Source: Octopus sinensis (lineage: Eukaryota). Taken from it: a stretch of DNA of 6,837 bases. Position 1 is the first letter of the stretch. Every line of letters starts with the position of its first letter. The stretch is taken from contig NW_021829195.1 in NCBI RefSeq assembly GCF_006345805.1, positions 1-6,837 of the forward strand, in the 5' to 3' direction. Made by a program: the position numbers and the translations under genes. The notes under the pieces are model-generated. The model made no database searches. It worked only from the letters and a program-made list of their open reading frames with translations, and was not told the origin of the DNA. Below are positions 524 to 3,794 of this stretch, in pieces.

Positions 524-560
524 ACGTAGGAGTGGTTGTGTGGTAAGTAGCTTGCTAACC
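524..560 (+). mobile_element. 5' head (A-box part) of a tRNA-derived SINE, split from its body at 3500-3794
   Basis: ACGTAGGAGTGGTTGTGTGGTAAGTAGCTTGCTAACC aligns with the start of the full SINE (1013-1049, GCGCAGGAGTGGCTGTGTGATAAGTAGCTTGTTTACC) and then stops abruptly. Confidence 0.85.
545..560 (+). repeat. Left copy of target-site duplication, AAGTAGCTTGCTAACC
   Basis: Matches 3500-3515 (AAGTAGCTTGCTTACC) at 15/16 positions. Joining 524-560 to 3516 onward restores a continuous SINE. Confidence 0.85.
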
Positions 561-572
561 TTCGTCGAAGTC

Positions 573-579
573 GGACGTG
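573..579 (+). promoter_or_regulatory. DPE-like internal Pol II promoter motif GGACGTG
   Basis: Starts 12 nt inside the inferred 5' end and matches the DPE-type motif of LINE internal promoters such as Drosophila jockey. No clear Inr is seen at the expected distance. Confidence 0.4.
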
Positions 580-1010
580 TTTTTTTGGCGGAGAGTTCTT
601 GCTGCTTGATGTCATGTCTTTCGTCGTGAAATATTGAATTTTGAGGCACGACTACAGGTAGGCGTTTGTTGTATTTTTTTGAGGGCTTAGTGGAGTTTGT
701 TGCTCTGTATTTAATATTTTTTGGTGAGTAATAGACTCCACACTGCTCCAGACATTTGCCTGCCTGTGGCCGCCTATAAAAACTCACTTTGCAGTGAGAA
801 TTGTGTTTTTGAGGAGGCGTAGTCCCTCCGCAAAAATTAATTTGTTTGCTTCTGAAATTGTCTTTGTGTTTTCTACTGGATTTACCACGGAGTACCAAGG
901 TAGAAAGGACTAATTGTGCTGCGGTTGGATTTATTTTACCATTGTGAGAATTTTTTGGGGGCGTATTCGTCTTCGATAAATTGAGTGAATATTTTTCTCA
1001 CCTAATTATG

Positions 1011-1176
1011 AGGCGCAGGAGTGGCTGTGTGATAAGTAGCTTGTTTACCAACCACATGGTTCCGGGTTCAGTCCCACTGCGTGGCACCGTGGGCAAGTGT
1101 CTTCTACTATAGCCTCGGGCCGACCAAAGCCTTGTGAGTGGATTTGGTAGACGGAAACTGAAAGAAGCCTGTTGTA

Positions 1177-1218
<42 letters not shown>

Positions 1219-1431
1219 AGTGTTTGTGTGTCTGTGTTTGTCCCCCTAGCATTGCTTGACAACCGATGCTGGTGTGTTTATGTCCCTGTCACTTAGCGGT
1301 TCGGCAAAAGAGACCGATAGAATAAGTACTGGGCTTACAAAGAATAAGTCCCGGGGTCGAGTTGCTCGATTAAAGGCGGTGCTCCAGCATGGCCGCAGTC
1401 AAATGACTGAAACAAGTAAAAGAGAAAGAGA
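1011..1431 (+). mobile_element. Full-length tRNA-derived SINE (octopus-type) nested in the 5' UTR of the retroelement
   Basis: A-box-like TGGCTGTGTGA (1022-1032), B-box GGTTCAGTCCC (1065-1075), a CORE-like CCGTGGGCAAGTG segment, an internal (TA)n(TG)n tract, and the tail ...CAGCATGGCCGCAGTCAAATGACTGAAACAAGTAAAAGAG. Homologous pieces lie at 524-560, 3500-3794 and 3980-4171. No TSD found. Confidence 0.92.
1175..1218. repeat. (TA)n(TG)n microsatellite inside the SINE
   Basis: Seen directly. A shorter equivalent lies in the SINE copy at ~3641-3660. Confidence 0.95.
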
Positions 1432-1753
1432 ACTGTATTGTGCCTTGAAGAACTTTAAGAATTGTGAGAACTGCGATATAGGGGAGTGTTTTGCCTCCGA
1501 AGTTTGAACAATTTTTACCAATTTATACCAATTTTTGTGGAAGTTGTGTTCCAGTTGCGGCGTTCCGAGTTCAATTTAGGCCGGGAGTACCGAATGGCCT
1601 GAAGATTTTTTGCTGTGTTATTGACTTTCTTTTGAACATTATTTGATTTTCTCCTTTTTGTTTTCTTTTTCTTCTCGCTTTTTAAGTTTTATTTTGAATA
1701 TATTTAAAAAAAAACCCAAAAAACAAGGCAATGAAAAATGATAAAATTTTGGA

Positions 1754-2995
1754 ATGGGAGATTATACCGCCTAAAAAGTGGTTAAAGACCGTGAGGATAG
1801 GATGGTGGTGTTGAGAACCTACTCCAAGGCACTCGACACCATCGCCCTGTTCGAAAAGACGGCAATTGAAAAGGAGTTGGCAGAGTAATTGCCAACAATT
1901 AAATTCATTTCCAGGGGTGTCAGATATGCAACGGTGTGGTTGCTATTTGACACCCCTGAAGAGGCTTGCAAATTTGCCAGTAAATCCCTGGAGGGTAAGG
2001 AGATTTTATTCCTGCCCACGTATCATGGAAAGAGATTGACGAAAGCTTGGATCTGCGGGCTGCCACCCGGGATAAAACCCGAGTAGATAGAGGAGACTAT
2101 CCGCCGGGGTCTGGGTGACAGCGGAACTAAGCTTCTTAATGTGAAAGTTCTTCCTGCGGCTGTTTAGGTTGGGTCAAAAGCAATTTTGACCCTTTGGACC
2201 CAATCAGCCAATCTGGTTCTTCCAGATTTTTTGAAAATGGCCGGGTGCAGGTACCCGGTGATACTTGAGGGTCGTCCCCCTAGGTGTCATCGGTGCTTGG
2301 AGTCCGGCCATATAAAGAAAAACTGTCCCCGGGAACAAAATAAGATCCCGGAGCAGTTAAGTGAGACCTCTGTAGAAGAGGGAATGAAGACGGCCGAGGA
2401 AGCGGAGGACTCCTCAAACAGGGGCCGAAAGAGGAAGAAGGTGAGCAACAATGGGTGCTCACCAAAGGATACTAGGGATGAGGAGGGAAAGGCGAATCTT
2501 CCGGCCACGGAGGAGACGCACCCTCCCTCAGTTGAAAAGAAAAAAAAGAAAAAGAGGAAAAGAAACGGGACATTACCGGCAGTCGGTGACATAGTACTGG
2601 AATGTTCCGGAACTACGTCGGTTGGGGTTGTGCAACCGACAGGAGAAGGAACACCGTTGGCGGGAACTGTGCCGCCAACGAAAGAATTGAATATCCCGCA
2701 CCCGAGCAAAAACGATGTATTGATCTTCTTCCATAGAGGCGGAGAGATTGAAAAGGTGATGGAAAAGCACCACAAGGGAGCACCTTTAGCCTTCACACAG
2801 GACTCCGAATGGCCTCCGCAGGTAGCTATGGAGGCCGTGGCGTTCGACGTGACGCTTTGGCTGAAGGAGCTCAATGAGGGTTATAGCTTGTTCCCGGGCA
2901 ACGCTAACACGGAACTCGATTTGGTTCTGAGGGAGGCGTGGTGGATGGCAGAGGATGGGGCACAAGTTATTTTGAGGATGAGTCATAAATTGTGA
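1754..2995 (+). pseudogene. L1/Tx1-clade ORF1-like (gag-like) CCHC zinc-knuckle protein with 4 in-frame stops
   Basis: Track ORFs 1889-2086 and 2186-2995 share a frame that extends back to ATG 1754: MGDYTA*KVVKDREDRMVVLRTYSK...ELAE*LPTIKFISRG...PTYHGKRLTKAWICGLPPGIKPE*IEETIRRG...PAAV*VGSKAILTLW...RYPVILEGRPPRCHRCLESGHIKKNCP. Stops are at 1772, 1886, 2084 and 2165. The knuckle is a perfect C-x2-C-x4-H-x4-C preceded by GRPPR. Basic NLS-like runs RGRKRKKV and KKKKKKRKR follow. Confidence 0.85.
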
Positions 2996-3495
2996 CACTG
3001 TGTGACACAAACATGTGATAACAGGCACTTCGCTTTCCTTCTAAACCCCCAGCTGTCAACGTGGTCTGCTTTGCAGACGGCTAGATATTTGACTGGAGGT
3101 CCGGAAAGAGGAGGAAGGGAAAAGTGATAATGTATTTTTATGTTTGATAGGACATGTTTAGATACGACTTCCTAAGGGAAGTGTAAGCCAGGTCTGGGAG
3201 GAGGGGCTTTGTATATTGTATTTATATCATATGTAATTATTGAACTATGTTGTTGTTAGTAATGGACTGTTAAGTCCAAAAATTGAAAAGTTGTAAAAAT
3301 TGTAAGAGGTTTAATACCTCGTTTTGTGTTTGTTTTTAAAAGAACAATGTTTTAGAGAGGCAGAAGTCGGCGGGCGCTTTTTGTCTTCTCCCATCCTTAT
3401 CATCTTTCTTTCATTATTATTCATTTCATTAATGTCCTCGTCCAGCCCGCAAAGCCACTTTACTCTATGTACTGCCTTTATGGCAAATGTTATGA

Positions 3496-3501
3496 AATAA
3501 A
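3496..3501 (+). terminator. Polyadenylation signal AATAAA at the element 3' end
   Basis: AATAAA overlaps the right TSD copy by 2 nt. There is no poly(A) tail. Confidence 0.6.
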
Positions 3502-3794
3502 GTAGCTTGCTTACCAGCCACATGGTTCCGGGTTCGGTCCCACTACGTGGCACCTTGGGCAAGTGTTTTCTACTGTAGCCTTGGGCCTACCAAAGTCGTG
3601 TGAGTTGATTTAGTAGATGGAAACTGAAAGAAGCCAGTCGTATATATATATGTATGTGTGAGTATAGGTCTGTGTGTCTATGTTTGTCTCCCCAACATCA
3701 CTTGACAACCGAAGCTGGTGTGTTTACGATCCCCGTAACTTAGTGGTTCGGCAAAGGAGATCGATAGAATGAGTACTAGGCTTACAAAAAATAA
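3500..3794 (+). mobile_element. Body of the split SINE (continues 524-560); starts with the right TSD copy 3500-3515
   Basis: Colinear with ~1034-1347 of the full SINE: B-box GGTTCGGTCCC, CCTTGGGCAAGTG, a TA/TG tract and ...GAGTACTAGGCTTACAAA. Its 3' end is replaced by another SINE. Confidence 0.9.

Follow-up and report, generated by a model that had tools for sequence, protein, structure and literature searches.

A clade of octopus LINEs found at a single base in the head of a tRNA-like SINE

Dewa, a member of the Tx1 clade of long interspersed nuclear elements (LINEs), targets tRNA arrays. Other Tx1-clade elements are described as preferring other transposons, snRNA genes or microsatellites, and an element has been treated as target-specific when more than 20% of its flanks hold one repeat (PMC4494074). 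tRNA genes are the targets of the NeSL-related LINEs NeSL-1_TV, LIN15_SM and LIN25_SM (PMC4640811), and Dada DNA transposons insert at the tRNA A box (PMC8869645). For the melanogaster R1 and many R2 elements it has been proposed that target sequence at the RNA's 5' end anneals, resulting in uniform 5' junctions (PMC2718515, PMC3774820). A 2026 annotation of octopus repeats reports 13 recently active L1-Tx1 families, and the words 'target' and 'nested' are absent from the portion of its text available (PMC13282606). Literature searches yielded no LINE with a short interspersed nuclear element (SINE) as its target; Repbase and Dfam lay outside that search and may already list the family described here. 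Here we analyse a stretch of 6,837 nt from Octopus sinensis (contig NW_021829195.1, hereafter the window), in which a LINE derivative has split a tRNA-like SINE, and show that it belongs to a LINE clade found at one exact base of this SINE, between positions +23 and +24 and on the same strand. We put at roughly 85% the probability that what brings the clade to this base is the APE endonuclease, acting sequence-specifically, of an autonomous Tx1-like partner 5.1 kb long, in which case the choice of site would be led by the enzyme.

As read from the sequence, window positions 561-3499 are a dead LINE derivative with only the first open reading frame (ORF1), inserted within the SINE head and flanked by a 16-nt duplication (Table 1). 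The insertion point lies between 544 and 545, that is, at SINE +23/+24. The insert measures 2.94 kb, or about 2.5 kb without a nested SINE, and contains a single decayed ORF with a CCHC knuckle and no reverse transcriptase (RT). The ORF is broken by a frameshift near 1785 and by stops at 1886, 2084 and 2165, and in sister copies it is open for 420-456 codons. From 3500 the host SINE body aligns without gaps to the nested intact copy at 1034-1174. A sequence-only reading of the window had placed the insertion in a tRNA-like SINE head, split between A box and B box, with a duplication starting right after GTGTGGT. All of this is borne out: the motif like an A box is left of the insert and the one like a B box right of it, under what we take to be the definitions of these motifs, and the two 16-nt copies differ at position +13 (A left, T right). 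That reading was also right about the absence of poly(A), but not about an AATAAA running into the duplication, since this motif straddles the 3' junction (3496-3501) and its final AA are bases 1-2 of the target copy. It overlooked both the ORF1-only, non-autonomous character of the element and the probable derivation of part of the left 'target site duplication' (TSD) from the element itself; positions 545-560 are likely to be in part the element's own leader.

The association with the SINE holds across the genome (2.72 Gb). Three samples of loci were chosen regardless of their flanks: by the element's 3' end, by ORF1 protein and by the 3' DNA of ORF2. The last 22 nt of the element have 128 exact matches, and in 92 of the 100 examined the same SINE base follows on the same strand. 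The SINE 15-mer (at most 4 mismatches) stands directly after the element end in 90/100 and the SINE body in 86/100, either being present in the 92; the background, from 523,600 flank positions, is 3.4e-4 per position for the 15-mer and 5e-5 for the SINE body. Among the loci picked by ORF1 protein, which represent a third subfamily, 19/20 are at the SINE site (20 of 150 matches), as are 24/30 by rule and 27/30 by hand of those picked by ORF2 3' DNA (30 of 40 matches, query included). Each of these samples is thus far above 20% of flanks with one repeat. In the genome the exact junction motif is present 1,095 times and its reversed control not once; the first 30 junction loci all resemble the clade, about 11 being of ORF2 type and the others like ORF1-only families. 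That the family targets the SINE head, as the sequence-only reading had conjectured and proposed to check by tabulating 3' flanks, is therefore strongly supported, and we have very little doubt that the pattern is real. The 22-nt end matches are skewed between strands (40 forward, 88 reverse; p 3e-5) and the junction motif is not (543 and 552); the skew may be an effect of assembly or search. Contigs of four sequencing runs cover the element 3' end, and a single piece, from run X17 with a different organism label, bridges the junction under a 31-base rule, so that spread of the junction to other species is only hinted at.

The copies at this site represent many separate insertions. 5'-truncated copies have varied break points, and each is fused to its own SINE head with a true duplication, which excludes hitchhiking; in L049, L059, L127, L138 and L152 private variants are present on both sides. 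The SINE bodies that follow the element are 2-28% divergent from the nested reference and come from different subfamilies, whereas the element ends are 95-99% alike, and autonomous and non-autonomous lineages with different 3' ends use the same site. In 20 tandem-type junctions the target site has been regenerated at a 5' junction. Several loci hold composites of two units with a target copy inside, indicating that transcripts read through the target. A unit of about 490 nt with a uniform 5' start is found alone or as the 3' half of target-joined two-unit composites (loci L050, L102, L129, L087 and L118; internal in L036, L044, L049, L131, L137 and L147). This suggests that read-through transcripts may be precisely truncated at the internal target copy. 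L076, with a 59-nt T-type SINE head on its left, an A-type body on its right and just 42 nt of element between them, is likely a recombinant or a template switch.

The target SINE is short, dispersed and high in copy number, with a simple-repeat tail; the nested copy is 420 nt long. From 26 sites in flanks we estimate about 270,000 copies, and exact target 23-mers number 77,229 of T type and 9,078 of A type, 86,307 together. Its A and B boxes are present at 1-2 mismatches. Compared with 15 distinct genomic tRNAs, the head scores a best z of 4-6.6 against shuffles, without a parent tRNA being singled out, and neither ARAGORN nor Rfam recognised a tRNA in the window SINE. Separation of the A box from the B box would disable the one SINE copy that is hit, but with the 1,095 junctions occupying about 1% of exact target sites, insertions cannot curb the SINE family. 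Older element ends lie in A-type SINEs and younger ends in T-type SINEs, and the base at +4 tracks the element subfamily (GTAA ends: 65 A, 2 T, 1 C; GTTA ends: 39 T, 1 A). We considered this correlation as proof of RNA templating and set it aside, because age suffices to explain it.

A candidate source of the enzyme shares the ends of the window element. One copy with the same 3' end, L117, has RT and a zinc finger, and another, L220, is a full-length element of 5.13 kb with ORF1, an APE endonuclease (PF03372, E 2e-8) and zf-RVT (E 3e-9), which lies between SINE head and SINE body with a duplication on both sides; RVT_1 is found in its sister copies L216 and L213. These natural fragments together have the layout of an L1-group ORF2, with an N-terminal APE domain, RT and a C-terminal zinc-binding motif after a separate ORF1, and the clade shows the insertion traits of that group: variable 5' truncation, a fixed 3' end and target site duplication. 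The window element and L220 are alike in the first 36 nt and the last 38 nt. The closest named relatives of the partner are Argonauta hians proteins (60% in RT), which also give the best endonuclease match. A bivalve protein labelled YTX2-like, YTX2 presumably being the label of Xenopus Tx1 ORF2, matches at E 3.5e-32, and the closest solved structures, those of L1 ORF2p, are distant (E 2e-11). Two word-based protein searches with the endonuclease ORF gave no match; the RT region and a HMMER scan did. An RT fragment beside L023 was considered as the partner and rejected, as it is part of a sister LINE family whose ORF2 is about 68% alike (L084, oriented 1680-3190; L046; L042; L045). The sole 3' end read from this sister family has no SINE after it and precedes another element in tandem; the family may have a different target.

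The ORF1-only units, 2.1-2.6 kb at full length, have both junctions and no RT, and have multiplied as such with ends common with the autonomous LINE. Among seven copies in frame throughout (L166, with a compensated frameshift, was excluded), the ratio of nonsynonymous to synonymous substitution rates is 0.24-0.62, so ORF1 has been kept under selection, as a HAL1-like unit. ORF1 matches PF00098 at E 0.006-0.011, under the curated cut-off, and its look-alikes in the Atlas are CCHC/ZCCHC3-like clusters at 0.91-0.92. A CCHC zinc knuckle in ORF1 is typical of the Tx1 clade. At least six different 5' ends are found on similar ORF1s in full-length copies (e.g. L033, L044, L089, L096). They are rich in GCGCATGCGC-like, CTTCCGG and CACGTG-like motifs, which we take to be NRF1, ETS and E-box motifs, and in one subfamily the ETS-like motif arises across the leader junction. 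Rfam, ribozymes included, gave nothing at the gathering score in L220, L033, L096 and L089, the L033 sequence stopping short of the 5' end.

The left duplication was compared between full-length elements and truncated ones. Of the 128 loci, 80 have a 5' junction, and 48 full-length and 18 truncated copies were used; excluded were five with indels in the left copy (T-type kept for the +13 count), seven tandem or rearranged loci, L076 and L122. Private variants of the right copy are also present in the left copy in 2/36 cases in the full-length set and 7/11 in the truncated set (Fisher p 1.6e-4), the latter still being 7/11 when removal of three uniform-start 490-nt units reduces that set to 15. 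At +13, 12 copies including the window have A left and T right, and none the reverse. Unrelated loci have identical odd variants in the left copy (L089/L115/L125; L161/L167/L170; L165/L176), L150 and L149 have a full duplication and, directly after it, another target-like leader, and within younger 5' ends a remnant of the older A-type motif survives a few bases in. It is at +9 to +15 that the signal is strong. The left copy of full-length elements thus follows the lineage and not the local target, which makes it likely that the RNA carries a target-copy leader that anneals at 5' joining. Tentatively, and with somewhat more doubt than belief, we speculate that the clade is specialised on this SINE and follows it through subfamily turnover, its leader being renewed each generation from the last SINE in which it landed and serving homology-guided 5' joining and possibly as part of a promoter. 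If so, this would be a SINE-following clade, a parasite whose own sequence is updated by a host repeat.

In the mechanism that we propose, the ORF2 protein of the partner would bind the common 3' ~38 nt of the RNA, nick the bottom strand at TGGT^AAG and prime reverse transcription without a poly(A) tail, perhaps aided by a few read-through bases (AAG). Duplications of up to 15-17 nt in truncated copies imply a top-strand cut that far downstream. The full-length RNA probably begins with about 15 nt of target, and its cDNA would anneal to the top-strand overhang, with mismatches near the end being trimmed, so that the left 'duplication' is mostly the element's version. Insertion restores the site at the 5' junction, and tandem trains of elements build up. 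Successive element subfamilies are found in successive SINE subfamilies, for which age is the likely reason.

Other explanations of the site have to be weighed against an enzyme-led choice. The same 3' neighbour in most copies, together with the read-through composites, might mean that there is no targeting, and that a single composite of SINE and element was amplified as a unit or that the SINE body on the 3' side is part of the element. We give this almost no credence, as it is contradicted by truncated copies with their own SINE heads and private variants on both sides, by the divergence of SINE bodies of different subfamilies next to near-identical element ends, and by the lineages with different 3' ends, autonomous and non-autonomous, at the same site. 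TRE5 and Ty3 are tethered to the Pol III machinery (RNA polymerase III) at tRNA genes. The octopus site is just 3' of the A box and between both boxes, as would be expected if tethering to Pol III machinery on the SINE boxes placed the element and sequence were incidental. This is only slightly less improbable, however, given the single-base precision, the use of old decayed SINEs as well, recurrent insertion at 5' junctions with the B box kilobases off, and a sole reversed insertion that obeys the sequence motif. The tRNA genes that the sequence-only reading had considered as targets were not seen either, none of the eight non-SINE 3' flanks resembling one by eye.

Specificity might instead come mainly from RNA-DNA pairing, target sequence at both transcript ends allowing a lax endonuclease to succeed where both anneal. 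Positions +1 to +3 are invariant at 98-99%, against 79-91% at +6 to +12, the +4 base is tied almost perfectly to element subfamily, and composites with an internal target copy point to read-through transcripts. But leaderless truncated copies reach the same base, the tracking of +4 fits age, T-type sites now far outnumbering A-type ones, and for Tx1/R1-type elements it is stated as a rule that the APE domain chooses the target (PMC4494074). We therefore regard pairing as an unlikely main source of specificity. Slightly less unlikely, and concerning the leader step only, is that gene conversion among element copies, subsequent to insertion, homogenised the left duplications of those that are full length; L076 looks recombinant, yet the SINE heads immediately upstream are not homogenised, and duplication and leader stand side by side in L150 and L149. 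Several observations nevertheless tell against enzyme-led targeting with a templated leader. In eight of the 100 copies the target is missing at the 3' end, and all eight flanks still start with AAG, which would fit RNA-templated priming as well as an enzyme preference. One of these is a reverse insertion into a SINE head (L084), where the opposite strand of the SINE also reads TGGT^AAG, this one case suggesting that TGGT^AAG may be the core motif; one is a seeming SINE with a later deletion, and six are unexplained. Over +1 to +8 the signal of the leader is weak (3'-only 8, 5'-only 2, shared 2), and truncated copies are similarly skewed there. Each of the eight elements whose leader is T13 lies in a T13 target, so that leader and target depend on one another, and the duplication lengths in truncated copies (3-17 nt, most often 13-17) were judged by eye on the bases that match, a procedure biased towards 'shared'. 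Every autonomous copy examined is broken, and the ORF1 of the window family is just 21-33% identical to the ORF1s of the ORF2-bearing copies examined, so the direct parent of the ORF1-only family was not found among them. Finally, the Tx1-like affinity suggested from the window agrees with the domains of the partner and its YTX2-labelled homologue, from which, and not from a tree, the clade placement would follow.

If site choice is enzyme-led, SINEs become a further kind of target for sequence-specific LINEs, on the evidence of more than a thousand junctions instead of a few. Unlike rDNA, which is homogenised, these targets are scattered and varied, so that every insertion keeps a record of the strand from which its left junction came, and 5' joining in the integration of APE-type LINEs, a step that is poorly understood, becomes testable from genome sequence. 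The clade also offers a natural series of endonucleases confronting a drifting target. For annotators there is a caution, in that such 'TSDs' are unusable for dating insertions.

Table 1. Parts of the split SINE and its insert, in window coordinates
Feature	Position	Strand	Remarks
Host SINE 5' head, tRNA-like	525-544	+	ends GTGTGGT; A-box-like motif 533-543
Left target-like copy, 16 nt	545-560	+	+13 base tracks element lineage
Element 5' untranslated region (UTR), part 1	561-1010	+	initial 36 nt 81% like 5' end of autonomous element L220
Intact second copy of same SINE family, nested in element 5' UTR	1011-1430	+	later insertion; not in sister copies
Element 5' UTR, part 2	1431-1730	+	
ORF1, Gag-like	1731-2995	+	CCHC knuckle 2282-2329; no ORF2 downstream
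Element 3' UTR, without poly(A)	2996-3499	+	final 38 nt (3463-3499) 84% like L220 3' end
Right target copy, local SINE sequence	3500-3515	+	read directly
Host SINE body	3500-3790	+	B-box-like motif 3531-3541

Elsewhere in the window, the left flank holds a decayed RT fragment of a related LINE on the minus strand (263-478; 37% to P0001, E 1e-14), which the host SINE adjoins in opposite orientation. Right of the host SINE are short repeats (3800-3900, 3955-4172 and 4783-5170) that include an older partial copy of the 3' half of the host SINE. A near-perfect palindrome of about 110 nt (6650-6759), with 33-nt arms that are 100% complementary, directly follows a (TATC)22 array and is possibly the end of a miniature inverted-repeat transposable element or a Helitron-like element.

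The octopus clade resembles Tx1L in Tx1D of Xenopus and the crocodilian Tx1-Mar, Tx1-8_Crp, Tx1-4_AMi and Tx1-9_AMi in being APE-type LINEs that prefer another transposon, and shares with Tx1L and the crocodilian elements non-autonomous passengers with the same target, tandem insertion and truncated copies that exclude hitchhiking (PMC4494074). The targets of those elements are piggyBac, Mariner, Harbinger or LTR (long terminal repeat) elements, Tx1-Mar using two regions (PMC4494074), whereas the octopus clade uses one base of a SINE head, on one strand, in about 90% of copies, and its passenger encodes ORF1. Insertion in or near a tRNA-type Pol III promoter is common to the octopus clade and the NeSL-related LINEs, Dada and Dewa, but the NeSL-related elements, as described, have a restriction-like nuclease and Dada a transposase, and both are at functional tRNA genes rather than in a dispersed and drifting SINE. 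With R1 the clade has in common a duplication of similar length, 14 bp in R1, and tandem arrays through a regenerated site (PMC2718515). The target sequence said to be carried by R1 and R2 is from upstream of the nick, through co-transcription, while the proposed octopus leader would match the sequence that is duplicated downstream of the nick, and the varied targets in octopus, unlike those of R1 and R2, let the origin of the leader be read from the genome. As a non-autonomous LINE derivative with ORF1 only, the window element is like HAL1, or half-L1 (PMC5753468). HAL1 is derived from mammalian L1, and the available part of that account describes no sequence target for it (PMC5753468), whereas the octopus unit has a CCHC-type ORF1 and a strict target; it is not HAL1 proper, the closest named ORF2 relatives being octopod and L1 ORF2p distant.
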